From NCBI GenBank assembly GCA_038065415.1, contig JBBTRA010000006.1:15262-79261 (forward strand): 64,000 nt of DNA, in the 5' to 3' direction. Positions 4,110-56,113 of the stretch are shown piece after piece (position 1 is the stretch's first letter; each line of letters begins with the position of its first letter). Origin of the DNA: Patescibacteria group bacterium (GTDB lineage: Bacteria; Patescibacteriota; Minisyncoccia; Phycocordibacterales; PALSA-1337). The translations under genes were made by a program, and so were the position numbers. The notes under the pieces are model-generated. The model saw only the letters and a program-made list of their open reading frames with translations, made no database searches and was not told where the DNA came from.

Positions 4110-4270
4110 AAGGCAGTCTCTCCTTGGTTGTGATTTTTCAAAACGTCTGGCAGTACTTTGCTCCTCAAATGACAAAATGTCAAGCCGCGATCTGGTGGTG
4201 TTGAATATATAAAAAATCCCACAACGTTTCCGTTGTGGGATTGGGACACACTGTTATGCCGAGGCAATGT

Positions 4271-5584: not shown

Positions 5585-5745
5585 AGTTGGCCTTTCGTTG
5601 GTGAAACAGTGTGTGTCAAAAAACGACTTGTTCAGTCTCGAACATTACTTATTCAAATAGGTTTTGTCAATAGCACACACTCGGAGTCAAATAAGGGCTA
5701 TTCACCTACGCCAGAGCTGTGCCATCTGATATAATTGATCATAAT

Positions 5746-7494: not shown

Positions 7495-7499
7495 AAACA

Positions 7500-8717: not shown

Positions 8718-8719
8718 CT

Positions 8720-10534: not shown

Positions 10535-10549
10535 GGTATAATCAAGCTG

Positions 10550-30413: not shown

Positions 30414-33400
30414 ATGAAAAAATCAATCTTCTCGTTCGTCATCCCGCTCGCGCTCTTCTCGCTGGCGGTTTTTGCTGCACCGGGGAACGTTGGGGCGCAG
30501 ACCTATGAATGTCCGGTAGGGTATACGTGCGTTCCTGCGAGCACGAGCACTCCTACTATAACAGTACTTTCACCTAGTGGAGGAGAGGTGTATTCACTTG
30601 GTAAAGGAATACTCGTGACATGGACAAGTCAAAATATAGCATCAGACCAGTCTATGACTATTGGGTTGCGAAATACGGCGACGGGCAAAGATTACTGGGT
30701 AGCGGATACTCTCAATGATGGTAACGAGATTATTTCCGTAGAGAAGGTGTCAGAAGCTTTAGAAGCCGGCATGTATAAGTTATTTATAAAAACAGCCATT
30801 TTTATTAATGGCGATAGTATTCATGGTTGGAGCAATTCATTTACCCTGACCTCTTCGACAAATCCCCCGACTGTCCCTTCGGTTTCCGTATTCTCCCCAA
30901 AAGCCGGCGAGATACTGGTTCAGGGTACACAAATACACATAGGTTGGAAAATGAACCAGTTTCCGTTGACTCAAAAATTGAGGATTGATCTTATGGTAGT
31001 TTTGGGAGATGCTCAAAATGGCAATATTGGCAAACAAATAGCGCTCGATGTTCCTAATACTGGCTCCTACGTCTGGACCGTGAAGTCGATAGAGCCTTTC
31101 TTTGATTCTGAATCCAATAGGATGGTAACTCCTATAGGTAAATATACGATTATGGTTTCTTGTGCGTATAATGAAGCGGGGTGTAATATGACACCGAACT
31201 TCATAGAAAGTGGAGTATTTAATATCGCCTTCCCAGTTACCCCTGTCCCTTGCTACACCTTCTCCACTAACCTTCAGCTCGGTTCACGGGGCGCTGATGT
31301 CGCTGCTCTGCAGACATTCTTGGTTGCTAAGGGCTTCAAGATTTCTGATCTCTCGGTCGGCCGCGGTTCCGAAAAGGGTTATTTTGGTCGCTCTACTTTC
31401 GAGGCACTCAAGAAATATCAAGAGAGCGTTGGCCTTCCAGCAACAGGATTCTTTGGTCCTCTGACACGAGCCAAGGTTAATGCGGACTGTTCAAATCCGT
31501 CGCCAGCTGAAGTTACGCTCACTGCTCTTCAGGTTGGGTACGAAGGCCAGTATCCCGCCTTCACCATATCTGCATCGTCTGCAAATAAGGTTCCAAGCTA
31601 TTGGGATTTGAAACTGGACTGCCCTAAGGGGGTCGACGCGATGATGAAGGGGGGAGGATGCGGTGCAACCTCACGTTTCATGGGATCTCTGCTCAACCTG
31701 ACATCTCTCACATTCAATAATCCAGGTAGGACCGAGGCGAGAGTTACCGTTACGGCGTCAGCCTATGACACTGCGGGTGCGCGCATCGGTCAAGCGAGCA
31801 TGCCTATAGTTGTTCCGGTCAATACGACTTTGAGCAAGAACTCAGTTAAGGTTACTCGTCCAGCAGCCGGTGAAGTGCTGAGCACAGGTATGCAGTACAA
31901 GATCGTTTGGACCACAAACTCTCTCGACAAAGACGCACTCTTTGACATCACATTGTTTGCAGACAATGGAAAAGGTTTGATTGCAGAAGGTCTTACGACG
32001 GCGCAGGCGAGCTGTACAGGCGTGAATTTTGAGAAAAAAGGAGGCCCTCTCTATACCTGTATTACAGGGTGGACACCGACCGAAGGGTCAGTGAAGGCTC
32101 AACTTGCTGTTAGCAAGCGCGGTACGAGCGAAGTTGGATATTCGGGTAGCTTTTCCATAGCATTCCCAGTGACTCCAGCAATAAACCTCGTGTCGATTCC
32201 GAATAGCTCAACTATTCCAAATAGTTTTGACTACGTTATTACTTCTGCGGGATCTGCATTTGATCGGATTGTGTTGCGTGCGGAATGTAATGACGGAGAA
32301 ATTTCTATTGGATCAAAGGGGGGTATGTTCTGCGGAGAGAATATTACAATAAATCTCACCGCCCCGGCAGGCAGGTATGTATTTCCGGTCACTTTCGAAA
32401 GCAAGGATGGCAAGAGCCATACAGTTGGAATGACTGTGACGGCGTACACAGGTGCTAGTATCGTAGGTGCGGACAAGGACGCTGTGACTGTCACTCCATC
32501 TACAAATCCACCAAAGCCTGCCATTCACACAATTATTTCGCCTAATGGAGGTGAGACCTACAATACAGGCGACACCGTTAACATCAAGTGGAGCCCTTCG
32601 GGAACTTCTGGTGATACAGTGAAGATCGAAGTCGGCTATGTTCATCCTGATAGCACCTATCCTGGTGGCACATATGTAGAGGATTGGATTATTGATAAAA
32701 CCGCGAATACAGGATCCTACAGTTGGGTCATACCTGAATATTATGGTACCGGTATCCGTACAGGTTCATTCTCAATCAAAGTTACTTCTGTCGCGAATGG
32801 CATGGATTATTCGGACAATAAGTTCACTATAAAACAGGGTGTTAACAGGCCAAACATAGTTGTTTCAAAGCCGGCTAACGGTGATGTGTATAAGAAGGGA
32901 GCTACGGTAAATATAGTGTGGCCATCTTCAGGTGATTCATATGGTGCTTCGTTGTTGAGGGTTGAGGATCCGTTGTTCCTCAGGTTTATGCTCAATACCG
33001 GAGGACTGAATGGTAATCTCACGTGGACGGTGCCTACGGATATACCAGATGCAAAGGATTACTACATACGAATAAACGAAGGAGTGTACCGCAATAAGAC
33101 AGGGTACAGTGGTATCTTCTCTGTTGGTTCAGATGTGCCTCCAGCTCAACCTACCATCAATGTTGTCACCCGTCTTGGTGGCCGTGTCTTGTCTTCGAGC
33201 GCTACAAATCCATGCGTGTCGAGCCTTGCTGGTCCGACAGGGAACAATACTGCAGGCTGTGTACGCACACTCACCAATCAGGCTCCTGGTACATACTCGG
33301 TAGTCTGGTACGGTGGGTATCCTGCAGGAGCTGATACGAGCAAGAAGCCAGTCATCACAGGAGCCCAGACGCTCGGTAGCAGTCCGATAACCTTCTACAT

Positions 33401-33500
33401 TGACTTCAGTCCAAAGCCGATCATCGAGGTCTACAATGGATCGAGCATATCTGCTTCTATCTGGGATGCAATCAATGAGTACTGGGAGAATAACCCATAA
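30414..33500 (+). CDS. Giant secreted surface protein with five Ser/Thr-rich GPI/Kre9-like repeat modules and one peptidoglycan-binding domain
   Basis: Signal peptide MKKSIFSFVIPLALFSLAVFA. Repeats of the type SPxGGExxxxGxxxxIxW: VLSPSGGEVYSLGKGILVTW, FSPKAGEILVQGTQIHIGW, TRPAAGEVLSTGMQYKIVW, ISPNGGETYNTGDTVNIKW, SKPANGDVYKKGATVNIVW. PG_binding_1-like LGSRGADVAALQTFLVAKGF...ALKKYQESVGLPATGFFGPLTRAKV. Confidence 0.6.
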   Translation: MKKSIFSFVIPLALFSLAVFAAPGNVGAQTYECPVGYTCVPASTSTPTITVLSPSGGEVYSLGKGILVTWTSQNIASDQSMTIGLRNTATGKDYWVADTLNDGNEIISVEKVSEALEAGMYKLFIKTAIFINGDSIHGWSNSFTLTSSTNPPTVPSVSVFSPKAGEILVQGTQIHIGWKMNQFPLTQKLRIDLMVVLGDAQNGNIGKQIALDVPNTGSYVWTVKSIEPFFDSESNRMVTPIGKYTIMVSCAYNEAGCNMTPNFIESGVFNIAFPVTPVPCYTFSTNLQLGSRGADVAALQTFLVAKGFKISDLSVGRGSEKGYFGRSTFEALKKYQESVGLPATGFFGPLTRAKVNADCSNPSPAEVTLTALQVGYEGQYPAFTISASSANKVPSYWDLKLDCPKGVDAMMKGGGCGATSRFMGSLLNLTSLTFNNPGRTEARVTVTASAYDTAGARIGQASMPIVVPVNTTLSKNSVKVTRPAAGEVLSTGMQYKIVWTTNSLDKDALFDITLFADNGKGLIAEGLTTAQASCTGVNFEKKGGPLYTCITGWTPTEGSVKAQLAVSKRGTSEVGYSGSFSIAFPVTPAINLVSIPNSSTIPNSFDYVITSAGSAFDRIVLRAECNDGEISIGSKGGMFCGENITINLTAPAGRYVFPVTFESKDGKSHTVGMTVTAYTGASIVGADKDAVTVTPSTNPPKPAIHTIISPNGGETYNTGDTVNIKWSPSGTSGDTVKIEVGYVHPDSTYPGGTYVEDWIIDKTANTGSYSWVIPEYYGTGIRTGSFSIKVTSVANGMDYSDNKFTIKQGVNRPNIVVSKPANGDVYKKGATVNIVWPSSGDSYGASLLRVEDPLFLRFMLNTGGLNGNLTWTVPTDIPDAKDYYIRINEGVYRNKTGYSGIFSVGSDVPPAQPTINVVTRLGGRVLSSSATNPCVSSLAGPTGNNTAGCVRTLTNQAPGTYSVVWYGGYPAGADTSKKPVITGAQTLGSSPITFYIDFSPKPIIEVYNGSSISASIWDAINEYWENNP

Positions 33501-41456: not shown

Positions 41457-42605
41457 TTAAAGAAACTTCCTGATAAATCTGATCGCAAAGAAAAGTATCT
41501 TGTCGGTGAAAAATTTCTTGTCCCATTCATCCTTCCTGACCTCTCGTGATCCGTGCATGTCACGGACGAAGTGGGCCGAGAGCTCTTCGACGAACTTCAC
41601 ATTGGTAGTGATGATGTTCGCTTCAAAATTGTAGAGGAGGCTGGCACTATCGAGATTCATGGATCCGACGGTTGCCCATTCACCGTCGATGACGACAGCT
41701 TTGCTGTGAATCACATTGCCTTCATAGAGGAATATACGTGCACCCGAATGAAGAAGTGTCTTGAAATATGAACGAGCTGCAAGATCGAGCGTGGGGTAGT
41801 GGTCGGTACGTTCGGGTAGTATGATCTTCACATCTACTCCTCGATGGGCAGCAAGTTTAATAACACGAGCAAGTCGGCGAGTTGGTACGAAGTAGGGAGT
41901 GGTAATGTACACATACTTACGGGCACTGCGGAGAGCCTCGATGAGTTCGGCATATACATGTCTGCGCTTGGGAGCAGGGTAGTTGGTAACATACCGGAAT
42001 TCATGGTCACGGATGCGGACTCGCGGAGGGAGTGGGGTATGCTCGGTGGCACGGGCCCACATACGATCGAAGGCATTGCTCATTTCACGCACCACGGCCC
42101 CTTCGAAACGGGCATTGGTGTCGCGCCAACCCTTCATGCGATCGCTTACGCAGATGCTGCCAGTGTAGCCAATATGTTCGTCGATCACGAGCGTGCGACG
42201 GTGATTGCGGAGATACCATGAGCGGAAGTTTGGCACCTTGAAATATCCCGGAATAAGAGTTTTCCAGAAAACAAGTTCGATGCCGCGCTTCTTGAGGTCC
42301 TTGGCGATGTCAGATCCGAAGAATGAGAAGCTGCCCGCGGCATCCCAGAGGAACCGGACTGTCACTCCTGTCGCTGCACGCTCAGCACAAATATCGATGA
42401 GCTTCTTACCGTACTCATCATTGGTGAATATGAATTGTTCGAGCGCTATGCTCTTTTTTGCTTGCGCACAATCTGCGAGCATTGCTGACCAAGCCTCTTC
42501 GTTGGTGGCATAGAGGGTCCAGGAGGTGGGGGAGATCATGGGGGTATGATAGCGCAGAATGGAGAGGAGTTCTAATGCGTATGTGCTGGAATAAAAAAGC
42601 CGCAT
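41457..42605 (-). CDS. Phospholipase D / cardiolipin synthase family protein
   Basis: Two PLD domains; second HKD motif IHSKAVVIDGEWATVGSMNLD. Start uncertain: ATG at 42605 or 42539, whereas the track ORF reaches 42686. Confidence 0.7.
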   Translation of the reverse strand: MRLFYSSTYALELLSILRYHTPMISPTSWTLYATNEEAWSAMLADCAQAKKSIALEQFIFTNDEYGKKLIDICAERAATGVTVRFLWDAAGSFSFFGSDIAKDLKKRGIELVFWKTLIPGYFKVPNFRSWYLRNHRRTLVIDEHIGYTGSICVSDRMKGWRDTNARFEGAVVREMSNAFDRMWARATEHTPLPPRVRIRDHEFRYVTNYPAPKRRHVYAELIEALRSARKYVYITTPYFVPTRRLARVIKLAAHRGVDVKIILPERTDHYPTLDLAARSYFKTLLHSGARIFLYEGNVIHSKAVVIDGEWATVGSMNLDSASLLYNFEANIITTNVKFVEELSAHFVRDMHGSREVRKDEWDKKFFTDKILFFAIRFIRKFL

Positions 42606-42633
42606 GGGATCACCTATGCGGCTGAGGAAGATA

Positions 42634-43158
42634 TTAGAGCAAGATAACTTCAATGAGCTCATGTCGCTCCAGCACCTCATGCTCATAGACGCGTAGTACT
42701 TGTTCGCGGTTGATCCGTCCCGTCGCTGAGCTGATGTTGGCCTTGCCGTAGATACCTTCGATGACGGAGATCTTTTGTTCGGTGGTCATAGCCCCGTGCT
42801 CCTCATAGAGCTCATCGAGGAATTTTTGCGCTTCTTCGGGCCATGCACCCGATACTTTCGGCAGTCCAAGAATTTCACAACAGATCCTCTGTGCAAATAA
42901 AGCTTCAGTTGAGGAAGCGTCTTCTGATGATGCTCCGGAAACATCCGGATGTTGAAGGCTGGGGGTTATGGCAAGATGTTCTTCGAGTGCCGCCAAAACT
43001 TCCAAGGTCATACCTCTCTCTGAGGAATGAAGTAAAACATTGGTGACATGATAGGCGTATGTCGGTCCGTAGCTACGGAATACCGTCAAGGCACGATCCC
43101 ATGAATAGCCCAGTTTCATTTCCAGCATTGCCCGGAACTGCTGCTCGTTGATTTTCAT
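42634..43158 (-). CDS. Hypothetical protein
   Basis: 174-aa ORF with no recognised motifs. Confidence 0.4.
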   Translation of the reverse strand: MKINEQQFRAMLEMKLGYSWDRALTVFRSYGPTYAYHVTNVLLHSSERGMTLEVLAALEEHLAITPSLQHPDVSGASSEDASSTEALFAQRICCEILGLPKVSGAWPEEAQKFLDELYEEHGAMTTEQKISVIEGIYGKANISSATGRINREQVLRVYEHEVLERHELIEVILL

Positions 43159-43706: not shown

Positions 43707-44068
43707 GGGGATGCCAGGCATAGACAGTCGACCATGTTCGTTCGTGCGGCGCGAGCACCGTTATCTCGTAAATCTGACGGAAACCCTAAATGCTAAAACA
43801 ACCTCACCGTATTTCACGGCCAAGGACTTTGCATTCGTCCCTGCATAAGGGATGCGCTCGCCCCGGGGGATTCTGACTCGGGGGCCGGGTGTTATAACCT
43901 GAATGTAGGACTGATAGAGCTTCTCGCCCTATTGTCCGAATAAAAGAGATCGTGAGTATGCGTTTTGTTTGCTTTCTTAACATACTCATTAAACTTCAAG
44001 GCATTCTACCGCCGTAGAATCGTTCGACGCATATCGATTGCACGCGAGTTCAATTCTCGCCATCTCCA
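43707..44068 (+). ncRNA. ssrA: tmRNA (SsrA)
   Basis: 5' GGGGATG pairs with 3' CATCTCC (44061-44067), including a G3-U wobble; discriminator A at 44068. 3' tRNA-like domain GCACGCGAGTTCAATTCTCGCCATCTCCACA closely parallels E. coli GGACGCGGGTTCAACTCCCGCCAGCTCCACCA. 5' GTCGAC D-loop analogue. Immediately downstream of smpB. Confidence 0.85.
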
Positions 44069-44195
44069 CAATAATTGACTTACATAGTCAAGAATATTAA
44101 GATACAGTCAGAAGTTATTTGGTGCGGACTTTCAGGTCTTAAGTGACTCCGTTTGAGATCTAGGAGTTCGTATCAAATTCAACCAAAAAGGAAGT

Positions 44196-45369: not shown

Positions 45370-45969
45370 ATGATTACACTATTAATTGTCGGATTGATCG
45401 CAATGGCAGGTTTTTTCATCGCTCGCGCGTTGCGCCGGAAACATATCGAATACATCCAGCATGAGCGCGCGTGTACATGCCCAGAAAATGAGAAGAGCAC
45501 GCGTGTCTGTGGATTGCCGACGATTCGGTACTTCCAGATGATTGATCTCACTAAGCCGGGCGGAGCGACTCGACGGGGGGCGCCGTTCGACTGGCACGTC
45601 TTTGACAAATGCGGCCAAGGGCACGTGCAACAGATTAAACATGGGAGCAAATGGTTCGTCTGGTACAAGCTCTGGTGGAGACGCCTCTACGATCCAGAGC
45701 AGTTTGTGCTCAACGAGAGTCTCTTCAAGGACGCGGCCCTTATTGAAGAGACTGTTAGAGGGCTGCACGAGAGGATAGCCCTCTTCGAATCAGAGTGCAG
45801 GCTGAGGAACGAGAAATTCACAAAAGGATCGGTTGTCGTCAACGCCGTTCTGCCGCGGCCCGGCAAAGGCAGGCTACTCTCCACACGGGTGCATCTCACT
45901 GAGGCGTCTGTTGCCGCTAACCACCTACGGATACCTCCCGTCGCCGGTGTCCGCATTTCCGAAGAATGA
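45370..45969 (+). CDS. Hypothetical protein with an N-terminal TM helix
   Basis: 199-aa ORF preceded by GGAGG; locally higher GC. Confidence 0.45.
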   Translation: MITLLIVGLIAMAGFFIARALRRKHIEYIQHERACTCPENEKSTRVCGLPTIRYFQMIDLTKPGGATRRGAPFDWHVFDKCGQGHVQQIKHGSKWFVWYKLWWRRLYDPEQFVLNESLFKDAALIEETVRGLHERIALFESECRLRNEKFTKGSVVVNAVLPRPGKGRLLSTRVHLTEASVAANHLRIPPVAGVRISEE

Positions 45970-46052
45970 CCAGTGTGCTTTGGTTCGTAGCCATATCTCC
46001 CAAGATATGGCTTTTTTCTTTCCTTTATAGCGCTTTTCTGTATAATCAACGC

Positions 46053-47984
46053 ATGCCCGATAATACATCTCCGAACCAGCAGGGAAGCAATCGACCCAAC
46101 AAACAGGGTCGAAAAGGGTTGATGCCGCCGCGTATGAACTTCTTGAGCACGGTAGTTATTGCACTTCTCGCATTCCTGCTTCTCGCGGGTTTGTATTCAG
46201 AGTTTTCAGGTGACTCCACAGCGACTCCCGCAACGTCGCTCTCCACGATAGCTGCTGATGTTGAGCAGGGTTCTATTTCCAAGTTGACGATACAGGGCGA
46301 TACAATCGTTGCTGAATATATTGATAAGACGCAGAAGTCCGCACAGAAGGAGGGGGACGCTTCTCTTACCGAGACACTCTCTCGTCTCGGCGTCTCATCT
46401 GCGCAGCTTGCTTCTACTACGATTATGGTCGAGAACCCGAGCGGGTTTGGCTACTGGCTCGGTCAGTTGGCACCTTTTCTTGCACCGATACTCTTCCTCG
46501 TTTTCTTCATATGGATGCTCTCCAGACAGGTCAAGGGTGCTGGTGTGCAAGCTATGTCATTTGGTCAGTCAAAAGCACGCATCACATTACCGGATGATCA
46601 GCGTGTGAAAGTGAAGTTCAAGGATGTCGCTGGAGCCAAGGAGGCCAAGCAGGAACTTTCTGAGATCGTGGACTTCCTCAAGAATCCCAAGAAGTTCATT
46701 GAGATTGGAGCGGAGATACCAAAAGGTGTGCTTCTCATGGGAGCTCCGGGTACGGGTAAGACGCTCCTTGCGCGTGCGGTTGCGGGCGAAGCAGGTGTTG
46801 CATTCTTTGCAATCTCTGGTTCAGAATTCGTGGAGATGTTCGTCGGTGTCGGTGCTTCACGTGTGAGAGATCTCTTCAAGATGGCCAAGGAAGCTGCTCC
46901 GGCGATCGTCTTCGTCGATGAGATCGATGCAGTTGGACGTGCCCGCGGATCTGGCATGGGCGGCGGCAACGATGAAAGGGAGCAAACACTTAACCAGATT
47001 CTTGTGGAGATGGATGGCTTTGAACCGAACATGAAGGTCATCGTCATGGCTGCAACCAACAGACCTGACGTGCTCGATCCAGCACTCCTTCGTCCAGGAC
47101 GATTTGATCGCCGTGTAGTCATCGACATACCTGACCGTGGTGACCGCCAGGATATATTGAAGATTCATGCTGCAAAGAAGAAGTTAGCCGCTGACGTCAA
47201 TCTCGGCATCATTGCAGAGCGCACGCCAGGATTCTCGGGAGCAGATCTTGCATCGCTTATGAATGAAGGTGCTATCCTGGCTGCCCGCGAAGACCGCACG
47301 GAGATCGGTCAGTTCGATCTTATCCGTTCAATCGAAAAGGTTATGCTTGGTCCGGAGCGTCGCAGTCATATATTGAGCCCGCAGGAGAAGGAAATCACCG
47401 CGTATCACGAAGCTGGCCACGCTATTGTTGCCTCGGTTCTGCCTCATGCGGATCCGGTGCACAAGATATCGATCATTTCTCGTGGTCGTGCAGCGGGGTA
47501 CACACTTAAGCTGCCGCTTGAAGATCGCAAACTCCAGTCACGTAAAGAATTCCTCGATGACATCGCTGTTTCACTTGGAGGATATGTAGCTGAGCGTATG
47601 GTGTTTGGCGATTTCACAACAGGTGCATCTAATGATCTCCAGGTATCGACTGCGCTCGCGCGTAGCATGGTGACGCAGTATGGAATGTCAGAGAAGATCG
47701 GGCCAGTTGCTCTCGAGGAGCCGCGCGGGAAGGTCATGTTCGGCATGGGCGTCGAGGCGCGTGACTACTCAGAGAAAGTTGCGGCTGAGATCGATGCAGA
47801 GGTGACGCGTATCATGACCGAGGCGCGTACCCTCGCAGAAAAAGTATTGAACGAACACAAGACCGTCTTCGAGATTGTTTCCAAGAGACTGATCGAAACT
47901 GAAACTATCGAGCGTGAGGAATACGAAACGCTCATCATGGCGCAGGGGATAGTGCTCAAGAAGAAGTGGGAACCAAAAGTATAA
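46053..47984 (+). CDS. ftsH: ATP-dependent zinc metalloprotease FtsH
   Basis: Two N-terminal TM helices, AAA+ ([13 protein letters not shown]), zinc-binding HEAGHA. Confidence 0.95.
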
Positions 47985-48027: not shown

Positions 48028-48101
48028 CCGCCCTTAGCTCAGTTGGTTAGAGCACAGAGCTTATACCTCTGGGGTCCTTGGTTCGAATCCAAGAGGGCGG
48101 A
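48028..48101 (+). tRNA. tRNA with anticodon UAU (tRNA-Ile reading AUA)
   Basis: Cloverleaf: acceptor ccgccct/agggcgg, D-arm gctc..gagc, anticodon stem cagag/ctctg with loop cTTATac (anticodon T48062-A-T48064), T-arm cttgg-ttcgaat-ccaag, discriminator A; CCA not encoded. Confidence 0.8.
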
Positions 48102-48161
48102 CAGGTTTTTGCACAGCTTCTATTGTTGACACGGTGATCTACATGGTAGAATAGAACCTAC

Positions 48162-48743
48162 ATGAAACGCGGCTTCACACTGATAGAACTCTTGGTTGTT
48201 ATATCCATCATGAGCATGCTGAGCAGTATACTTTTTGCCTCAATTGCTTCTGCGCGTATGAAGGGGAGAGACGGGCTCAGGATATCTCAGCTCCATCAGA
48301 TAGATCTTGCGGTACAACTCTATATGACATCGAACAACAGGGCTCCTGATCTTCAGGGAACTTGTCCTTCTTCTGCAACGCCAGATAATTCAACTGTTAC
48401 CAATTGTGTCGCGAATGCTACCACCAACTCGACAGCATGGGATCGATTCAAGTCGGACATCCAACCATATATGAAGACGGTTCCAAGTGATCCGTGTATA
48501 GCAAATAGCTCGTGTATAAGTGGGGCATCTGGATACACGCTTGGATATACCTATGTAGCTCCTGCTGCAGTGAAATATCAGTGCGCCGAGGATTCGGGGG
48601 GCACATGTCCACAGACCAGTACAGTGCTCAATCAGTACTATCAACTCTACGCTCCGCTTGAGAGACAAAATATGCCTACAGGGGTAAAGTCTCTCGGTTC
48701 TGCGTTCTTCACACCACCATCTCCTGGAGGATATGGCTTCTAG
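48162..48743 (+). CDS. Type IV pilin (prepilin with MKRGFTLIELLVV leader)
   Basis: Class III signal MKRG|FTLIELLVVISIMSML; C-terminal Cys pairs; shares the motifs GYTYVAP..YQLYAPLER with the three downstream pilin paralogs. Confidence 0.85.
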   Translation: MKRGFTLIELLVVISIMSMLSSILFASIASARMKGRDGLRISQLHQIDLAVQLYMTSNNRAPDLQGTCPSSATPDNSTVTNCVANATTNSTAWDRFKSDIQPYMKTVPSDPCIANSSCISGASGYTLGYTYVAPAAVKYQCAEDSGGTCPQTSTVLNQYYQLYAPLERQNMPTGVKSLGSAFFTPPSPGGYGF

Positions 48744-50205
48744 GTACATGTCCATCTTACGTGTGCCACGGGTATGGCTATATATAGGGGTTGCAACTTT
48801 TTTGGTTGCAGCTGCATTTATCTGGCTACCTTCTGTTCGTGTTGTATTGCACTCGATCGTCAATGTATTTGCAACTGGTCGAACAGGTACCAAGGCGCTG
48901 ATATTCATGGCGTATGTGATATCAGTTTCAGGTATCCTCTATGTGCGTTCTAAGAAAACAGAGTCTACGCATACGCTACGGTACTGGAAGGTGTTCACTG
49001 CTACGAGCGCTCTTGGTGCGTATGTTCTTAATTTTTTCACATATCTGTGGACGATGAAGCTCTGGCATATCCCGGTGTTCACGTATTCACTCATTTATAA
49101 CAACGGTTCATTCACATCATTTCAATTCGTACATAATCATGCAACTAAGGGAGCTATCGCTGTTCTGACACAGCTACTCCCAGAAGGGGTCTTCGGCCAT
49201 CTCGATGCAGGCACAGCTCTTCTTGGGATAATTCCGAATGCACTCTTATCGCTACAGGCGCTACTTGTTCTGGGATGCATCATCGGTATATACGGAATAT
49301 GGCATGCTGTGCTTCCAAGGATCACAGCTCTCTCTTCGAGACGAGCAGTAGTATATGTAGCGATGTTGATCCTGAGTTCGTTCATGGTACTCAAGTCTCT
49401 TCTTGATGGGGGAATCTTCAGTTTTGAAGCTGTTGTCGGTTTGTCCTTCTTCTTTTTCCTCATATCGAAAGGTTCGACTCGGGCACGGAATACACTGCTC
49501 GTGGTCAATGGTGCATATTTCATCCTTCTTGGCTTACTGTATTGGGTGGGCTACTTTGCCACAGATAGTAACTATGGATATCATAATTTCTCTTTCGTCA
49601 CTATCTTGCTTGTAATGACAGCTTTGTATGGGATATATGAATTTGGGAAGACAAGGCTCACGATGCTCGTACTCATGATGGCGGTCATACCTCTGTGCGT
49701 TCAGGTGTACAACGGCTTGACTGTATTTGAGTACAGAAATATTTCGGTAGAAAAGGATGACATCGCGTACATTTTCTCATATGAGAACCTTGATATTCCG
49801 GGGTATACGTTGCGCCATAGTATAGGGAAGATCAATCTCTATACATTCTCGCCGAGGGAGCCTATGGCTATAGCGGACATCATCCCGCATACAGGGTTTG
49901 CTGACAATATGACGCCAGTTAGTGTTGCGTGGAAGACGTGCGTACCACCTGCGCCCCGAACGAGCTACACACTCAATGTTGTTTCTCCGAATGCGATCGA
50001 TATGGATAACGAGGTTACCCAGTTGTATCGAATGGACGCGGTACCACTTGGTACATATGACGATGGTTTTCATCGATACTCGGTCACTATATCGGCGCAT
50101 CCATGTTCGGTTCCTCAGCTCATCGTATTTGTACAAGAAATCTTAGCGAAGCATTTTGGGGGATTCGCTATATACGATATACAGCAGTTCGAAAACGGCG
50201 AATAA
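48733..50205 (+). CDS. Large polytopic membrane protein translationally coupled to the pilin (candidate pilin-modifying O-oligosaccharyltransferase-like enzyme)
   Basis: 490 aa with at least 10 TM helices and a soluble ~120-aa C-terminal domain; start overlaps the pilin stop. Function inferred from position only, by analogy to tfpO/pilO downstream of pilA. Confidence 0.5.
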   Translation: MASRYMSILRVPRVWLYIGVATFLVAAAFIWLPSVRVVLHSIVNVFATGRTGTKALIFMAYVISVSGILYVRSKKTESTHTLRYWKVFTATSALGAYVLNFFTYLWTMKLWHIPVFTYSLIYNNGSFTSFQFVHNHATKGAIAVLTQLLPEGVFGHLDAGTALLGIIPNALLSLQALLVLGCIIGIYGIWHAVLPRITALSSRRAVVYVAMLILSSFMVLKSLLDGGIFSFEAVVGLSFFFFLISKGSTRARNTLLVVNGAYFILLGLLYWVGYFATDSNYGYHNFSFVTILLVMTALYGIYEFGKTRLTMLVLMMAVIPLCVQVYNGLTVFEYRNISVEKDDIAYIFSYENLDIPGYTLRHSIGKINLYTFSPREPMAIADIIPHTGFADNMTPVSVAWKTCVPPAPRTSYTLNVVSPNAIDMDNEVTQLYRMDAVPLGTYDDGFHRYSVTISAHPCSVPQLIVFVQEILAKHFGGFAIYDIQQFENGE

Positions 50206-50206
50206 C

Positions 50207-50710
50207 ATGATGATTGATATACTACAGGCGGCCATCATATTTGCGCTGCCATGTTGGGTGGCGAATATGGCATTTTCCCTCATTGTGCCCCTGAAGAGGG
50301 TAGTGCCTCTAGTGGCACAGATCGATCGACCACTTGATCACGGAGCGTCTTTGGGTGGTTCACGTATTTTTGGGGATTCCCGGAACTATGCAGGACTTAT
50401 TCTTGCGCTTGTTCTTGCATTATCGTGGGGGATTGCGGCACATGATCCACTGGTTGGAGCAAAGATTATGCTTACCTTTGTGGGGGCGGTGCTCGGCAGT
50501 TTCATCAAACGTAGGTTTAGGCTACGTTCAGGGCAGAAGATGCCCGTGCTCGATCAGCTTGATTATATGTTTGTAGTCGGAGGTATCTGGTATTTTTTTG
50601 GTTTTGAGAGTGGGGCTGTTGTCTGCATGGCGATGCTGATCACCCTTATTGGTCAACCGACTATTTCGTATGTAGCTTTTTTGCTCCGGTTGAAGGACAA
50701 GCCTTACTAG
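50207..50710 (+). CDS. CarS/DUF46-like CTP-transferase family membrane protein (CDP-archaeol synthase / polyprenol-kinase-like)
   Basis: LPCWVANMAFSL, GSRIFGDSRNYAG and GAVLGSFIKRRFRLRSGQKMPVLDQLDYMF match the CarS (DUF46) signature GDxxGSFxKRRxxxxxGxxxPxxDQLDF. Confidence 0.6.
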   Translation: MMIDILQAAIIFALPCWVANMAFSLIVPLKRVVPLVAQIDRPLDHGASLGGSRIFGDSRNYAGLILALVLALSWGIAAHDPLVGAKIMLTFVGAVLGSFIKRRFRLRSGQKMPVLDQLDYMFVVGGIWYFFGFESGAVVCMAMLITLIGQPTISYVAFLLRLKDKPY

Positions 50711-50739
50711 CACCTCCACATTCGAAAGTATCTTTAGTG

Positions 50740-50890
50740 TTATACTATTCCCATGAAACGAGGCTTCACTCTCGTAGAACTCCTGGTGGTTATATCCATC
50801 GTATCGATGCTCGCTAGTATCGTGATGGTGCAGATTAGTCTTGCGCAAGCAAAAGGCCGTGATTCACTGCGTACACAGCAAATCAGGCAA
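50740..50890 (+). repeat. Near-identical ~150-nt block (promoter plus pilin 5' end), copy 1
   Basis: Matches 51645-51795 with about 5 mismatches, starting at the TATACT -10 box and running through codon ~45. Confidence 0.85.
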
Positions 50891-51607
50891 ATAGATACGG
50901 CTATGCAATTGTATGTAGAGACATATAAGAGGGCACCCTTGGCAGATAGTTTGACGGGGTGCGATATTCAGTCAGAAAATCCGACCGAATATGAGGATGT
51001 CTCTTCCTGCTTTGCAGTATCGACAAATGGGACTGAGACTCAAGAGCAGAATTGGGATACCTTGAGAACAGAACTTCAAGAATTCATACGGTTACCAGAA
51101 GATCCGTGTGGCACATGTGTTTCGGGGTCAGATGGATTTCTTATCGGGTATACATATGTTGCTCCCTATGCGATGCAGTACTACTGCTACACAACAGGGA
51201 CATGTATAGCGACCAATGAGTCCTATCAGGTGTACGCCCCCCTTGAGCGTCAGACGATGCCGACCGGTAGTGAAGGATCATCACAAAACTACGCATCTCC
51301 AAATCAGCCTCCCGCTTCATATGCTTTGAGTACGCCCACGGGCTTAGGAGCAATTCCATGGCAACCTCCTTCTAAACTGCTTTCATGGCAACCGTCGACA
51401 GGGGCACCTGAGGGTGCGTCAATACTCTATTATGTTCGAAAGGAAGGAAACCCTCAGGAACATCTGGTCGAAGGCACAACTTCTTTTTGGGCACGAGTCG
51501 GGGATTATGGGTGGATTGCTCCATATTGTTGGACTGTGCGCGCAGAGGATCCTGAAAATGGACTTTACTCGGATCGTAGTGAACCTTCCTGTGTATCAGC
51601 GCCGTAG
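50753..51607 (+). CDS. Type IV pilin paralog
   Basis: MKRG|FTLVELLVVISIV...; conserved SSCFAVS, GYTYVAP, YQVYAPLER motifs. Confidence 0.85.
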   Translation: MKRGFTLVELLVVISIVSMLASIVMVQISLAQAKGRDSLRTQQIRQIDTAMQLYVETYKRAPLADSLTGCDIQSENPTEYEDVSSCFAVSTNGTETQEQNWDTLRTELQEFIRLPEDPCGTCVSGSDGFLIGYTYVAPYAMQYYCYTTGTCIATNESYQVYAPLERQTMPTGSEGSSQNYASPNQPPASYALSTPTGLGAIPWQPPSKLLSWQPSTGAPEGASILYYVRKEGNPQEHLVEGTTSFWARVGDYGWIAPYCWTVRAEDPENGLYSDRSEPSCVSAP

Positions 51608-51644
51608 TACCCAGGTGAGTTTGGAAAGCTAGCATGACCATATG

Positions 51645-51795
51645 CTATACTATTCCCATGAAACGAGGCTTCACTCTCGTAGAACTCCTGGTGGTTATAT
51701 CCATCGTATCGATGCTCGCTAGTATCGTGATGGTACAGGTTAGTTTGGCGCAAGCAAAAGGCCGTGATTCACTGCGTACACAGCAAATCAGGCAG
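51645..51795 (+). repeat. Near-identical ~150-nt block (promoter plus pilin 5' end), copy 2
   Basis: See copy 1. Confidence 0.85.
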
Positions 51796-52911
51796 ATAGA
51801 TCTTGCGACTCAGATGTATATAGAAGCGAATGGTCATGCTCCGTATCTAGAAGATCTCCAAAACGATGTTCCGCCGACCCTTTGTGACATTCAGTCTGAA
51901 ATTCCTGAAGAAAGCGAGGCATCGGCATGCTTTGCTGTGTCGTCTCAGGGTGTAGATACCCCAGCAGGGAGGGCGTGGGAAGCTTTCAAGAAAGATCTCG
52001 CGCCATACATGAATGTGCCCAATGATCCTTGCGGCAGTTCATGTGCCTCGGCTTCGGATTTTCCGATCGGATACACGTACGTGTCGCCACTTGCTATGCA
52101 GTACTACTGTTCCTATTCCGGCTGTATTGTGACTGACGATTCGTATCAGCTCTATGCTCCGTTGGAACGCGAGTCGAACCCGAGTGGTAATAGTGGATCT
52201 TCGAGCAACTATTCCCATAATCCAGGGAGTTCATCGGGAGGAGATGGCGGGCAAGATGATTCTGTACCTCCGAGCGTGCCAGCTAATGTAGACGTTACCT
52301 TGAATTCACTCTGGACCGGAGGGTCGATTGGTATCGAGATCACTTGGGACGCATCTACAGACGATGATTCGGGAATTGCGGGCTACAAAGTATCGCCGTT
52401 GGATGATAACTCATATAGTGGCTATGATGATGAAGGAAATCCGATACCTACGGATCCAACACCGGGAACTTCTCGAGATACGCACGGCCTGATCTGGTCG
52501 ATGGGCATGAGTTTCTGTTATAGCGTCAGAGCCTATGATACTGCAGGCAATCCATCTGGGCCGAGCGATGAGGTTTGTACCCCGAATATACCAGCATTCT
52601 TCGGGGCCCCTACGGGCGTTACCGCTATCCGTCAAGGTAATCAGGTAACGGTCAATTGGAATGCGGCTGCAAACCTAACATCTGACGCGGTCGTCAAATA
52701 CCAGGTCTATCATCCAGGCGGCTTCCTCATAACAGAGACCACCCAGTTGTCTGCTACCTATGATGCGGTGGGTTGGGGTAACTGCGTCAGGATTGCTCCG
52801 GTGGGGTATGTCAATTTTGAGGGTTCTGAATGGCTCCTGTATAACGACAATAGTGGTTTCGGACTACCTCCAATCTCAAGTGCTACCACATGTGCATCTC
52901 CAGGTATTTAA
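51658..52911 (+). CDS. Type IV pilin paralog with a C-terminal fibronectin-III-like extension
   Basis: ATG 51658 sits 6 nt after TATACT (the track start 51634 is rejected). N-terminus is identical to the previous pilin for ~45 aa. C-terminal about 180 aa contains PPSVPANVDVT...SIGIEITWDASTDDDSGIAGYKV, which is FN3-like. Confidence 0.8.
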   Translation: MKRGFTLVELLVVISIVSMLASIVMVQVSLAQAKGRDSLRTQQIRQIDLATQMYIEANGHAPYLEDLQNDVPPTLCDIQSEIPEESEASACFAVSSQGVDTPAGRAWEAFKKDLAPYMNVPNDPCGSSCASASDFPIGYTYVSPLAMQYYCSYSGCIVTDDSYQLYAPLERESNPSGNSGSSSNYSHNPGSSSGGDGGQDDSVPPSVPANVDVTLNSLWTGGSIGIEITWDASTDDDSGIAGYKVSPLDDNSYSGYDDEGNPIPTDPTPGTSRDTHGLIWSMGMSFCYSVRAYDTAGNPSGPSDEVCTPNIPAFFGAPTGVTAIRQGNQVTVNWNAAANLTSDAVVKYQVYHPGGFLITETTQLSATYDAVGWGNCVRIAPVGYVNFEGSEWLLYNDNSGFGLPPISSATTCASPGI

Positions 52912-52923
52912 TTTATAACGAAT

Positions 52924-53754
52924 ATGAACGGTATACATACTAAAGCATTCACTTTGATAGAGCTCCTGGTAGTCATCTCCATTCTCTCAATGTTGGCCAG
53001 CGTGATACTCGTCAATACCGCCTCGGTGCGCGCATCAGGCCGAGATGGTGTGCGTGTGCAGCAGATACGCCAGATAGATCTGGCAGTGAAGTTATACACT
53101 GAGGCGAATGGGCATGCTCCATTGTTGACTGGTTGTGATGTTCAGTCTCAGAATCCATCTGTGTCGCAAGCGCAGGCCTCGTCTTGTTTCGCAGTTTCAA
53201 CCGGAGGACTAGCATGGGATTCTTTTAAGAGTCAGATTGCTCCATATATGCCACAGACACCAGGCGATCCTTGTCCTACAGGGTGCACATCTCCTTCAGG
53301 TTTTCCTATCGGATATGCGTATGGAGCACCGCTCGCCATGCAATATTATTGCGGCCTGGCCGGGTATTCGTGCACCGCTAACAGGAAGTCGTATCAACTA
53401 TATACACCACTTGAGAAGAGTCCCAATCTCGTCGGCACAAAAGATGTAGGTGACTTTTTCACACCAACGATGGCTGCGCCCGTTATAACAAATTTCAATT
53501 CATTCCCGTTCTTCAATGGACCGCAACAAACCCCAGGACGTCATTTTGTCTGGCAAGTTACCAATGCGCCGAGCTGCATACTATCGGATAGTTTTGGTAC
53601 TATTCCTATAACAACAGTGCTGATTAGTGAGGCGGGGAATGGGTCACAGTCATTCATAGGAGCAAGCTTCTTTGGTCCGAACGATATAGTGACTGTTACG
53701 TGTTCGACGGCTGGAGGTACTGCTACAGCTCAATATATAGTTCCTGCGCAGTAG
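52924..53754 (+). CDS. Type IV pilin paralog (Ala at the -1 position)
   Basis: MNGIHTKA|FTLIELLVVISILSML; conserved SSCFAVS, GYAYGAP, YQLYTPLEK. Confidence 0.75.
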   Translation: MNGIHTKAFTLIELLVVISILSMLASVILVNTASVRASGRDGVRVQQIRQIDLAVKLYTEANGHAPLLTGCDVQSQNPSVSQAQASSCFAVSTGGLAWDSFKSQIAPYMPQTPGDPCPTGCTSPSGFPIGYAYGAPLAMQYYCGLAGYSCTANRKSYQLYTPLEKSPNLVGTKDVGDFFTPTMAAPVITNFNSFPFFNGPQQTPGRHFVWQVTNAPSCILSDSFGTIPITTVLISEAGNGSQSFIGASFFGPNDIVTVTCSTAGGTATAQYIVPAQ

Positions 53755-53767
53755 GTTGTGAGCATTC

Positions 53768-56113
53768 TTATTCGAAGTGACTTTCTTTTGCTGATCGATC
53801 CACAACTTTTTTGAGCAATGGATATTTTCCGAGAGAGGTATCTTCGGCGATAAGCTTCATTGCCTCATTTCTCGCCGCTTCTACCATTTTGAGATTTTTG
53901 AGTGCTTCCATAGCTACATCTGAGACTCCCCATTGGCGTAGACCAGAGAGTTCACCGGCACCGCGCTGGGTGAGGTCGAGTTCGGCCAACTCAAAACCAT
54001 TCTTGGCTGTAGCGAGGGCCGTCAGACGCTCGATTGACTTGGCGGAATTGGTCTCAGTGAATGCATAACAGTAGGCCTGGTGCGCACTTCTCATGACGCG
54101 TCCGCGGAGCTGGTGGAGCTGGGCGAGACCAAACCGCTCAGCACCTTCGATGATGATGACTGTCGCGTTCGGTACATTGACTCCGACTTCAACGACTGAG
54201 GTGGCGCAGAGGATATTGATCTTACCAGATTTGAAGTCGGCCATTGCACGATCTTTTTCGTGAGGCTTCATCTTGCCGTGCAGGATACCGACTTCATATT
54301 CAGGGAATACCGACCGACTGAGACGAGCCGCTTCTTCCTTTACTGACTTGGCGATAACGGCTGCTTCTTTGTCCGGGTCGGGCTCATCGATGCGTGGACA
54401 GATGACATAGAGTTGTCTGCCGTCCGCGAGTTCTCTGCGGATCTTTTCATATGTTTCGCTACGCTTGTCCGGTAGAACGAGCTCGGTGATGATGGGCTTG
54501 CGTCCTGCAGGGCTCTGGTCGAGGATGGTGAGATCAAGGTCGCCATAAATAGTCAGTGCGAGGGTTCGTGGGATGGGTGTAGCGGTCATGGAAAGGAGAT
54601 GGGGAGCAAGTGCATTTCCGTGCTCCATGTTCTTCTGCACAAGTCGTTTGCGTTGGCCGATACCGAAGCGATGCTGTTCGTCGATGATGGCATATGCAAG
54701 CCGCTTGAACTTCACAGACTTCTGGATGAGTGCTTGGGTGCCTATGACTGCCGCGATCGAACCGTCGGCTACCCATTTTAAGAGTTGAGACCGTGATATA
54801 TCGGTCCAACTTTTTGGATTCACCTTGGAAGGGAACACGCGGCATCCGGAGCCTGTGATAAGTGCAATGCGTATCGGCATGTATGAGAAATACTGGATGA
54901 ATGATTCAAAATGCTGGGTGGCTAATATTTCCGTGGGACACATATATGCGATCTGAAGACGCGCGTTCATTACTGCATATGCAGTTGCTGCTGCGACGGC
55001 CGTCTTGCCAGAACCGACGTCTCCTTCGAGGAGTCTGGACATGGGCTGTTCACGTGACATATCGCCGACGATAGTCTCGATGGCTCTTTTCTGTGCATCA
55101 GTGGCCTGGAATGGGAAGCGGCGGATGAATTCATGCACATGTCCCATATCGGTCTCGAGAACGAATGAAGGGTACTGTTCGTAGAGCTTGCGAGCCTGTT
55201 GGCGTCCGAGCTGTATCATGAATATCTCTTGGAATGAGAACCGTTTGCGTGCAGACAAGGCATCATCGTGTTTCTGGGGAGCGTGCATCCAGATACATGC
55301 AGTCTTGATCCCTGGAAGGTTATATTTCTTCAGGATGTCCGCCGGAATGGGATCTTCGAGTGCATCCAAGATGCCTGTCTTGAAGAGCTTCTGTAGAGAA
55401 TGGTACATCCAAAGAGAGCTGATACCTCGGGATTCAGGGTAGACAGGATACAAGGTGTGAGATTCGCCATCAGTTCCGAAGAGTGAGTCGCCGACACCTA
55501 CCGGAAGTTTGTCGATGAGTTCGATTTTTGGGTTAGAGAAGTATAACTTCGCATTATCAGGCTCCACAAAAACAGGCTCTTCACCCACGATAGCCTTTGC
55601 TCGCATGGAGGAAGAGCTCGCAAAGGCTTCTTTTCTCGGCGTTGTGTTCGTGGTGAACGGGATACTATGTCCCAACGCCTCCGAAGAGGGATCAGAACCT
55701 ATTTTTGTTTCGCTTTCAATGCTCCTTACTTCTTTCCCCTTACTCCTCCGCTGACTGACCTTACCCTCGATACGGACGAGGGCGCCCTCGGGGGTCATTT
55801 TTGCGATATAGGGTTGATTGAACCAGATGCACTGGATCGTACCGCTCTCGTCTTCGACGGTTGCTGTGGCCATGGTCATCTTGGTCTTGAAACCCTTGGT
55901 TGCTTTGAGGTGGGTGATTTTGCCGAATATGGCAACCGCATCGCCTTTTTTGAGGGAGCTTATGCTCCGCGCCTCGGCTGTGTCACCATAGCGTACGGGA
56001 AAATGATAGAGGAGGTCTTCTAGGGTGTGTACACCAAGCTTCTTCAGTGCATCCTTCTGGATTGGTGTGATACGGAAATGCTCGGATACAGGTATATCGG
56101 GAGAGATGGGCAT
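53768..56113 (-). CDS. recG: ATP-dependent DNA helicase RecG (with a ~90-aa low-complexity insertion in the N-terminal wedge region)
   Basis: Helicase motifs GDVGSGKT, DEQHRFG and others; N-terminal wedge domain; 781 aa. Confidence 0.9.
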   Translation of the reverse strand: MPISPDIPVSEHFRITPIQKDALKKLGVHTLEDLLYHFPVRYGDTAEARSISSLKKGDAVAIFGKITHLKATKGFKTKMTMATATVEDESGTIQCIWFNQPYIAKMTPEGALVRIEGKVSQRRSKGKEVRSIESETKIGSDPSSEALGHSIPFTTNTTPRKEAFASSSSMRAKAIVGEEPVFVEPDNAKLYFSNPKIELIDKLPVGVGDSLFGTDGESHTLYPVYPESRGISSLWMYHSLQKLFKTGILDALEDPIPADILKKYNLPGIKTACIWMHAPQKHDDALSARKRFSFQEIFMIQLGRQQARKLYEQYPSFVLETDMGHVHEFIRRFPFQATDAQKRAIETIVGDMSREQPMSRLLEGDVGSGKTAVAAATAYAVMNARLQIAYMCPTEILATQHFESFIQYFSYMPIRIALITGSGCRVFPSKVNPKSWTDISRSQLLKWVADGSIAAVIGTQALIQKSVKFKRLAYAIIDEQHRFGIGQRKRLVQKNMEHGNALAPHLLSMTATPIPRTLALTIYGDLDLTILDQSPAGRKPIITELVLPDKRSETYEKIRRELADGRQLYVICPRIDEPDPDKEAAVIAKSVKEEAARLSRSVFPEYEVGILHGKMKPHEKDRAMADFKSGKINILCATSVVEVGVNVPNATVIIIEGAERFGLAQLHQLRGRVMRSAHQAYCYAFTETNSAKSIERLTALATAKNGFELAELDLTQRGAGELSGLRQWGVSDVAMEALKNLKMVEAARNEAMKLIAEDTSLGKYPLLKKVVDRSAKESHFE

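Follow-up and report, generated by a model that had tools for sequence, protein, structure and literature searches.

A pilin-linked cassette of an uncharacterised polytopic membrane protein family and a CarS-like CTP-transferase-family protein in Patescibacteria

In a stretch of 64,000 nucleotides (nt) from the genome of a Patescibacteria group bacterium (contig JBBTRA010000006.1, positions 15,262 to 79,261; hereafter the window, in whose own numbering all positions are given) we found a set of six plus-strand genes in which two membrane proteins of other kinds are embedded among four type IV prepilins. The first gene, pilin1 (48162-48743), encodes a short prepilin of 193 amino acids (aa) and is followed by a gene for a 490-aa polytopic membrane protein, here termed BIG (48733-50205), defined by the listing of open reading frames (ORFs), by hydropathy and by an AlphaFold2 (AF2) model. 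Behind it lies a gene for a 167-aa CarS-like membrane protein of the CTP-transferase family (50207-50710), and then come three further paralogous prepilins, namely pilin2 (50753-51607, 284 aa), pilin3 (51658-52911, 417 aa) and pilin4 (52924-53754, 276 aa). An initial annotation of the same DNA, made from its letters, had placed two non-pilin membrane proteins between pilin1 and pilin2, and all six ORFs were recovered at the positions it gave. The comparisons described below establish that pilin, BIG and CarS-like genes form a real cassette that is widespread in Patescibacteria; it is uncharacterised.

The first three genes run in the same direction and are overlapping or nearly so. From its ATG at 48733, BIG overlaps the end of pilin1 (stop codon TAG, 48741-48743) by 11 nt, while the alternative start called by NCBI, the ATG at 48748, lies 4 nt past that stop. 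A single nucleotide separates the BIG stop (TAA, 50203-50205) from the ATG of the CarS-like gene at 50207. This ATG, chosen by alignment with the homologues P0005 and P0006, is the probable true start and would yield the 167-aa product; the longest ORF (50156-50710) begins with TTG and corresponds to 184 aa, and the NCBI call is one of 147 aa. A recently acquired horizontal island is rejected on the GC content, which is 0.46-0.49 at the locus and 0.47-0.53 in the rest of the window.

All four prepilins match PF07963, the prepilin N-methylation motif (E = 1.4e-7 for pilin1 and up to 2.7e-6 across the set), and also TIGR02532 (E = 1.9e-8 for pilin1), with scores above the cut-offs. The start of pilin1 can be read as MKRG/FTLIELLVVISI, which has the features of a class III signal peptide, i.e. 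a short basic leader, G at -1, F at +1, E at +5 and a hydrophobic helix of about 20 residues. Pilin2, pilin3 and pilin4 are 47-50% identical to pilin1 and have in common with it core motifs of the SSCFAVS, GYTYVAP and YQLYAPLER type along with six cysteine columns, which bears out the earlier description of four paralogs with a common core and divergent C-termini. The divergence is considerable: pilin1 ends in ...FFTPPSPGGYGF, whereas pilin2 carries a C-terminal extension of about 95 aa that closes with ...CVSAP and lacks an aromatic end, pilin3 one of about 220 aa closing with ...ASPGI, and pilin4 a different extension of its own closing with ...IVPAQ. The FN3-like domain once assigned to one of these extensions was not confirmed: neither Pfam, even at E ≤ 10, nor a PDB sequence search found any FN3 match in them. 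Orthologs of pilin1 lie directly 5' of BIG in three related loci (L001, 64% identity; L003, 53%; L005), and pilin3 and pilin4 have orthologs at L001:10414-11643 and L001:6926-7735, respectively. As judged from sequence, pilin1 is the cognate pilin of the cassette, and pilin2-4 arose within this lineage by duplication of the pilin core and carry added C-terminal domains.

BIG itself had no match at E ≤ 1 in either Pfam or NCBIfam, and a word-indexed homologue search with it recovered only three relatives. An exhaustive profile search, with clustering at 50% identity, brought the family to at least 262 clusters, and E ≤ 1e-30 was reached by 63; the members are nearly all 440-500 aa long and align end to end, and the only label on the few that are named is 'hypothetical protein'. 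The AF2 model, based on a 121-sequence alignment (pLDDT 94.6, pTM 0.93), comprises nine long transmembrane helices, an outer loop with a β-hairpin (residues 111-168) and an outer C-terminal α/β domain of 155 aa (residues 336-490). Hydropathy likewise gives nine helices, and the earlier count of at least ten is corrected to this number. The placement of positive charges in alternate short loops indicates, by the positive-inside rule, an N-in/C-out topology. Across 100-121 members the conserved residues are G49/R50, H134, H136 and K139 (which together form an H-x-H-x-x-K-G motif), D158, G160, F217, D225-G226-G227, C403 and C458, and in the model R50, H134, H136, K139, D158, the D225GG stretch and the cysteine pair C403/C458 are all placed on the outer face of the membrane. 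Comparison of the family profile with PDB sequences gave nothing below E = 0.17, and Foldseek comparison of the model with PDB and BFVD gave no match at E ≤ 1e-3 (TM ≤ 0.18). BIG is an uncharacterised family, with a predicted fold that has no known match.

These searches bear directly on the kinship to TfpO, PglL and O-antigen ligases that had been surmised for the 490-aa protein, and they dispose of it: null results in Pfam, PDB-sequence and fold comparisons rule out a homolog of the Wzy_C/PglL/TfpO/WaaL-type ligases. GT-C enzymes (PglB, AglB, ArnT, PMT or TfpW) are likewise rejected, there being no PMT, PMT_2 or STT3 match, no fold match and no acidic residue in the first outer loop (NVFATGRTG). 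A broader screen of 100 family members against Pfam at E ≤ 0.1 found no Wzy_C, PglL, PMT, GT-C, exosortase, peptidase or sortase family. One could still imagine BIG as an oligosaccharyltransferase of the TfpO/PilO/PglL/WaaL (Wzy_C) or GT-C type, transferring a polyprenyl-diphosphate-linked glycan to the pilin. It sits directly behind a pilin gene, is polytopic with a conserved site predicted to face outward, has a GtrA-family gene upstream in loci of the CarS-BIG order considered below, and in one Woesebacteria locus is surrounded by GT4 and PMT_2-like genes. Such a function is nonetheless barely credible in view of the absence of Wzy_C, PglL, PMT or GT-C Pfam matches from the 100 members and of any PDB sequence match, and the cassette has no conserved gene for a priming glycosyltransferase or a flippase. 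A glycosylation operon is ruled out too, with no glycosyltransferase, flippase or sugar-nucleotide gene in the window or recurring in the neighbourhoods.

The CarS-like protein is placed more readily. It matches PF01864 with 61.2 bits (cut-off 22, E = 1.7e-16), and a profile of its Patescibacteria and archaeal relatives retrieves the CarS structure 5GUF of A. pernix (5guf_A, E = 1.8e-42). The CarS/DUF46-like identity given to the 184-aa version is therefore upheld, though the score against NF003114, the NCBI equivalog model of CDP-archaeol synthase, is 78 bits and falls below the cut-off of 148, on which ground it is rejected as an equivalog of true archaeal CarS; identity to archaeal CarS is 25-30%. 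The motif G-S-F-[IV]-K-R-R...G...[VLI]-D-Q-x-D is kept as in archaeal CarS, and no variation is seen between the Patescibacteria and archaeal sequences at D61, G73, G110, G114, F116, K118, R119, R120, G126, D133 and Q134. Because the columns of the catalytic motif are invariant, the protein is plausibly an active enzyme of the CTP-transferase superfamily. In CarS, the CTP-binding and active site lies on the cytoplasmic side (PMC9385802).

Membership in PF01864 and the conserved catalytic motifs would also suit true archaeal-type lipid synthesis, in which the CarS-like protein makes CDP-archaeol for the membrane of the organism itself, BIG is an unrelated neighbour or another lipid enzyme and the pilin is incidental. 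GGGPS and DGGGPS homologs have been reported in a Parcubacteria genome (PMC7852524), and in one locus of our collection (L006) a UbiA-family prenyltransferase gene lies about 4 kb downstream of BIG. We consider this explanation highly improbable: the equivalog score and the identity to archaeal CarS are too low, genes for G1PDH, GGGPS and DGGGPS are absent from the 64-kb window and do not recur in the neighbourhoods, and linkage to BIG and pilins is unexpected for a housekeeping lipid gene. The window as a whole has no glycosyltransferase, flippase, CdsA or isoprenoid-ether-lipid gene.

Strong evidence for the cassette comes from gene neighbourhoods. Loci were gathered by means of a CarS-like alignment, 29 from species-representative genomes and 20 from metagenomes; their ORFs were scored with hidden Markov models for BIG and CarS-like and with a pattern for prepilins, and dereplication of the BIG genes at 90% identity left 41. 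BIG adjoins the CarS-like gene in 26 of the 29 genome loci and 16 of the 20 metagenome loci, and 36 of the 41 dereplicated BIG genes have a same-strand CarS-like neighbour, 27 in the order BIG-CarS and nine in the order CarS-BIG. A prepilin gene is found -120 to +150 bp upstream in 18 of the 26 BIG-CarS loci with enough upstream sequence; a 19th (L014) has a variant pilin missed by the prepilin pattern, and in two loci (L015, L060) the pilin is just downstream instead. The closest homologs of the window BIG, at 55%, 35% and 34% identity, all occur in the order pilin, BIG, CarS-like. The first lies in a run of FtsH, pilin, pilin, BIG, CarS, pilin and RecG (P0002), the second has pilin-BIG-CarS between wholly different flanks (P0003), and the third pilin-BIG-CarS-pilin-pilin (P0016). 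At 24% identity, P0022 presents pilin-BIG-CarS between ClpP and an RNase T-like gene, P0070 has the order BIG-CarS-pilin, and the flanks of L003 are entirely unlike those of the window. When neighbouring ORFs were clustered across the loci, the recurring families were BIG, CarS-like and pilins only. Patescibacteria therefore keep the pair, with a pilin gene right in front of it, amid differing flanks, and the synteny check suggested at the outset comes out strongly in favour of the module.

Dozens of unrelated contigs show the same arrangement, which is therefore hardly a matter of chance, and the pairwise distances of the proteins co-vary (r = 0.72 for BIG and CarS-like, 0.60 for BIG and pilin; Mantel p ≤ 5e-4), which fits inheritance of the three genes as one unit. 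The records containing these loci are labelled Parcubacteria, Paceibacteria, Nomura-, Doudna-, Woese- and Taylorbacteria, CPR3 and 'Saccharibacteria' (the last on metagenome-assembled genomes, MAGs), and a few carry the label archaeon or Gammaproteobacteria, which is a record label only. BIG is absent at three archaeal or other CarS loci (L029, L034, L036). Our search of the literature on CarS, PF01864, CDP-archaeol synthase or CdsA, in the candidate phyla radiation/Patescibacteria or in connection with pilins, found no description of a pilin-BIG-CarS linkage.

A further link between BIG and its neighbour lies in the C-terminus of the pilin. The BIG-adjacent pilins end in a small-small-aromatic tail, [G/S/N]-[S/G]-[F/Y]-COOH, with examples such as GSF, SSF, NSF, ASF, GSY, DSY, TGY, WGY and, in pilin1 of the window, GYGF. 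A terminal F or Y is seen in 19 of 21 BIG-adjacent pilins as against 3 of 19 other pilins of the same loci (Fisher p = 2.8e-6), none of these three having the small-small context, and every tail contains Ser, Thr or Tyr within its last few residues. Of the non-pilin N-anchored proteins encoded directly 5' of BIG, four out of five also end in Y, W or F (L006, L038, L052 and L059, ending Y, Y, W or F), the exception being a fusion locus (L058) that is described below. In the lineage of the window, extra domains in pilin2-4 stand in for the tail after an FF-x-P segment, indicating that the tail position is surface-exposed and extendable; lacking the tail, pilin2, pilin3 and pilin4 are probably not substrates of BIG. 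At L035:1227-5876 two divergent pilin-BIG units, with the tails ...TSAF and ...GGGGY, are arranged around one CarS-like gene, a pattern suggesting that the BIG of either unit is specific to the pilin of that unit. Together with L020, which has two tailed pilins, it also suggests that enzyme-substrate pairs share one donor-supplying enzyme.

The free C-terminal aromatic after small residues on adjacent N-anchored proteins might alternatively be the handle of a pilin assembly, anchoring or C-terminal processing factor. BIG would then be a docking chaperone, or a peptidase or transpeptidase using the terminal aromatic in a manner resembling sortase, exosortase or DD-transpeptidase logic, and the CarS-like protein would supply a lipid acceptor. 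The outer α/β domain with its invariant cysteine pair, and the H-x-H and Asp residues, which could bind a metal, are compatible with such a role. We hold it to be rather unlikely all the same, seeing that the family has no peptidase, sortase or exosortase match, that the pilin has no cleavable C-terminal helix or extension, and that a non-catalytic BIG would not account for an obligate CTP-transferase partner. An exosortase or archaeosortase proper is ruled out: there is no Pfam match, the conserved cysteines are in the outer C-terminal domain only, and the pilin end is a free three-residue tail.

The neighbourhoods further include a second architecture, formed by the nine CarS-BIG loci, none of which has an adjacent pilin. 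The same genes lie downstream of BIG in L007 (3603-9491), L018, L026, L031 and L045, with L026 and L045 being seen from the CarS-like gene onward only. The full order, as found in L007, L018 and L031, is an SLT-like gene, a small membrane-protein gene (of the GtrA family in L007), CarS, BIG, an N-anchored protein of about 315 aa and a large secreted CARDB/PKD protein, and the ~315-aa anchored proteins end in K-[LVI]-[IV]-P. At L006:2147-5177 BIG has no adjacent CarS-like gene; upstream of it are encoded a pilin-like protein with D at +5 (GFGIID), two small transmembrane proteins and an N-anchored 229-aa protein ending in ...RKAY. Since the second architecture has no pilin, it is the BIG-CarS pair that appears as the invariant core, and the partner surface protein as the variable element.

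Clues to chemistry come from two proteins, P0127 (880 aa, L058:6001-8643) and the product of L025:3144-5873 (909 aa), 36% identical to each other, in which a full-length BIG is fused to a C-terminal domain of the Phosphodiest/Sulfatase type, i.e. of the alkaline-phosphatase superfamily (E = 1.6e-21 and 2e-16, respectively). By eye, the P-T-F nucleophile context is still recognisable in the fused domain, as are its metal motifs G-D-H-G and H-G-Y. L025, from a MAG labelled 'archaeon', has a CarS gene directly upstream, and L058 has no CarS, with small cupredoxin-like N-anchored proteins upstream. The fusions point to phosphate-ester chemistry at the outer face. The window BIG is not itself an alkaline-phosphatase-superfamily phosphotransferase like PptA, EptA or LtaS, the Sulfatase/Phosphodiest domain being absent from it and present only in these two fusions.

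Putative phosphate chemistry at the outer face, in a pair that occurs in both gene orders and without pilins and is better conserved than its link to pilins, could also reflect salvage or remodelling of host lipids. BIG would bind or flip scavenged host lipid phosphates, the CarS-like enzyme would trap and activate them inside as CDP-lipids, the pilin would be adjacent for host contact or co-expression, and in the fused forms, which as NPP/alkaline-phosphatase-type fusions occur in MAGs labelled archaeon, the phosphodiesterase domain would first remove the head group. Patescibacteria are generally held to depend on host lipids; the conserved R, H and K residues that the model places on the outer face would fit binding of lipid phosphates; and the window encodes a cardiolipin-synthase-like enzyme (see below), hence some phospholipid remodelling. 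This explanation strikes us as unlikely, in that it leaves without explanation the small-small-aromatic tail of the adjacent pilin, the one-pilin-per-BIG duplication of L035 and the overlap of the pilin stop with the BIG start, and BIG has no fold similarity to a transporter or flippase.

We favour, at a probability of roughly 0.45, the proposal that BIG modifies the C-terminal tail of the pilin encoded with it, or else that of a different anchored surface protein. The donor would be lipid-linked and contain phosphate, and the CarS-like enzyme would either make it or recycle a lipid by-product of the reaction. At the inner face the CarS-like enzyme would use CTP to activate or phosphorylate a membrane lipid, candidate reactions being the conversion of a phosphatidic-acid-type lipid to a CDP-lipid or, as in the CTP-dependent kinases of the superfamily, of diacylglycerol or a polyprenol to a lipid-phosphate. 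The resulting lipid-linked donor, or a phospholipid derived from it, would reach the outer leaflet, where the R/H-x-H-x-x-K/D/DGG site of BIG might bind its phosphate, while the outer C-terminal domain would dock the exposed pilin tail, onto which a phospho-head group, a phospholipid or a glycan would be transferred. Alternatively, the CarS-like enzyme may recycle the lipid by-product of the transfer.

Several considerations weigh against this proposal. No similarity between BIG and a known transferase could be detected, and the catalytic role proposed for it is read from conserved polar residues. BIG is more closely linked to CarS-like genes than to pilins, the nine CarS-BIG loci and a few BIG-CarS loci being without an adjacent pilin. 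The aromatic tail could be a structural or docking feature and not a modification site. Given that CDP-lipids are made inside and the BIG site is outside, a flip or conversion step must be assumed; and the clustering of neighbouring ORFs revealed no glycosyltransferase, flippase or head-group transferase in the cassette.

A bolder form of the modification proposal, which we put forward as speculation and deem doubtful, is that BIG represents a new-fold family of extracytoplasmic transferases, present in Patescibacteria and possibly in DPANN-type archaea, which together with the CarS-like enzyme covalently joins a moiety derived from a CDP-lipid, either a phospholipid or a phospho-head group, to small-small-aromatic tails on pilins and other N-anchored surface proteins. 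If true, BIG and the CarS-like enzyme would constitute a protein lipidation or phospho-modification of a hitherto unknown type, and an 'archaeal' lipid enzyme would be tied to bacterial pilus biology and perhaps to interaction with the host membrane.

Type IV pili are central to host attachment, movement and DNA uptake in Patescibacteria. The cassette offers a concrete three-gene system that combines a marked candidate substrate, a family without a fold or annotation match and a CTP-dependent lipid enzyme otherwise deemed archaeal. The sole statement on pilin modification in Patescibacteria that we found in the literature is a software-predicted O-glycosylation in Saccharibacteria (PMC11623550). 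With the present results, at least 262 clusters of 'hypothetical proteins' become one family with a predicted set of active-site residues, and the C-terminal [G/S/N]-[S/G]-[F/Y] provides a signature for finding more candidate substrates. CarS-like genes in bacteria would also gain a rationale outside membrane biogenesis, which bears on the gene surveys of the 'lipid divide' that count such homologs.

Regarding the surroundings of the locus, FtsH (45966-47984) forms its upstream flank and RecG (53768-56113), convergent with the pilin genes, its downstream flank. A tRNA-Ile(UAU) gene (48028-48102) lies directly 5' of the pilin1 promoter region; a tRNA-Ile with a UAU (TAT) anticodon is unusual in bacteria, where AUA is mostly decoded by a lysidine-modified CAU tRNA. 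The putative promoter is a near-consensus element, TTGACA-N15-TAGAAT (plus strand, 48126-48152), read from the letters themselves; its 15-nt spacer is outside the 16-18 nt range spanned by our promoter scan, hence the scan does not list it. As its 3' edge is 9 nt before the pilin1 ATG, the pilin1 mRNA would have a very short leader or none, i.e. be leaderless or nearly so.

Pilin1-4 would be assembled by type IV pilus machinery encoded at 5719-11173 of the window, all on the plus strand. This cluster comprises a PilB-like ATPase (5719-7494; T2SSE, E = 1.8e-116), a PilC-like platform protein (7440-8717; T2SSF, E = 4.9e-56), a 604-aa prepilin-type protein with an N_methyl match and a CarboxypepD_reg-like domain (8720-10534), which is probably a large minor or tip pilin of the cluster, and a second prepilin-type protein with an N_methyl match (10550-11173). 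A 504-aa ORF just after it (11178-12692) has no family match. Just upstream of the PilB/PilC cluster, on the minus strand and adjoining a sigma-70 gene (1929-2855), is a gene for a sigma-54-dependent activator-type AAA+ protein (3018-4175; Sigma54_activat, E = 2.6e-59; Fis-type helix-turn-helix), a possible PilR-like regulator within a reduced genome. Elsewhere the window encodes ComEC and, on the plus strand, a 1028-aa surface protein (30414-33500) with peptidoglycan-binding, Ig-like and Kre9/KNH-like domains, the last being mostly a fungal annotation. A cardiolipin-synthase-like enzyme of the PLD family is encoded on the minus strand (41457-42686; TIGR04265, 240 bits against a cut-off of 290) and has an ortholog in the same relative position in L001, from which it appears that the organism does some remodelling of phospholipid head groups. 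A tmRNA gene (43707-44069, plus strand) specifies the tag peptide AKTTSPYFTAKDFAFVPA, and SmpB is syntenic in the related locus L001.

Among known systems, the CarS-like protein resembles the superfamily of CarS (A. pernix 5GUF), CdsA, dolichol kinase, phytol kinase and yeast Dgk1 in its PF01864 membership, its size of about five transmembrane helices and its catalytic and N-terminal D/G columns. It differs from archaeal CarS in that the latter has an insertion between helices, which the bacterial (Patescibacteria) form is without, and in that the Patescibacteria form has BIG as its partner, not lipid-pathway genes. Exosortases/archaeosortases and rhombosortases, which are polytopic enzymes of the membrane, recognise sorting signals at the C-terminus of their substrates and attach lipid to them; they are comparable in so far as a dedicated polytopic protein is found beside substrates with a common C-terminal signature and lipid-pathway enzymes. 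Their signal, however, is tripartite with a transmembrane helix as opposed to the free three-residue tail seen here, and BIG has neither the transmembrane Cys/Arg/His triad nor a Pfam match. PptA of Neisseria, EptA, LtaS and OpgB are membrane-anchored transferases of the alkaline-phosphatase superfamily that move phospholipid head groups to extracytoplasmic acceptors, the diacylglycerol being recycled by a lipid kinase. The activity proposed for BIG would resemble theirs in the lipid-derived phosphate donor, in the extracytoplasmic acceptor (a pilin in the case of PptA) and in the pairing with a lipid-activating or recycling enzyme, and a Phosphodiest/Sulfatase-type domain is present as a fusion in two distant BIG proteins; yet the five-helix membrane anchor of these transferases is unrelated to the transmembrane domain of BIG, and the window BIG is without their domain.

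The nearest organisational parallel is with TfpO (PilO) of Pseudomonas aeruginosa 1244 and PglL of Neisseria, which are pilin O-oligosaccharyltransferases of the Wzy_C/O-antigen-ligase family. Here too the gene lies right behind a pilin gene, and its product is a polytopic inner-membrane protein that would act at the outer face. TfpO targets the C-terminal residue of its own pilin, a parallel to the conserved tail of the BIG-adjacent pilins. In contrast, BIG has no sequence or fold kinship to these enzymes, with nine transmembrane helices and an α/β domain of its own, and has an obligate CarS-like partner that they are without. Of the pilin-modification module proposed in the initial annotation, then, synteny supports a dedicated pilin accessory module in a TfpO-like position, but the enzyme family proposed for it does not hold. 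By this analogy a dedicated accessory enzyme for the pilin C-terminus, encoded behind the pilin gene, would be an organisation known from Pseudomonas tfpO, while the components appear to be new in such a role.

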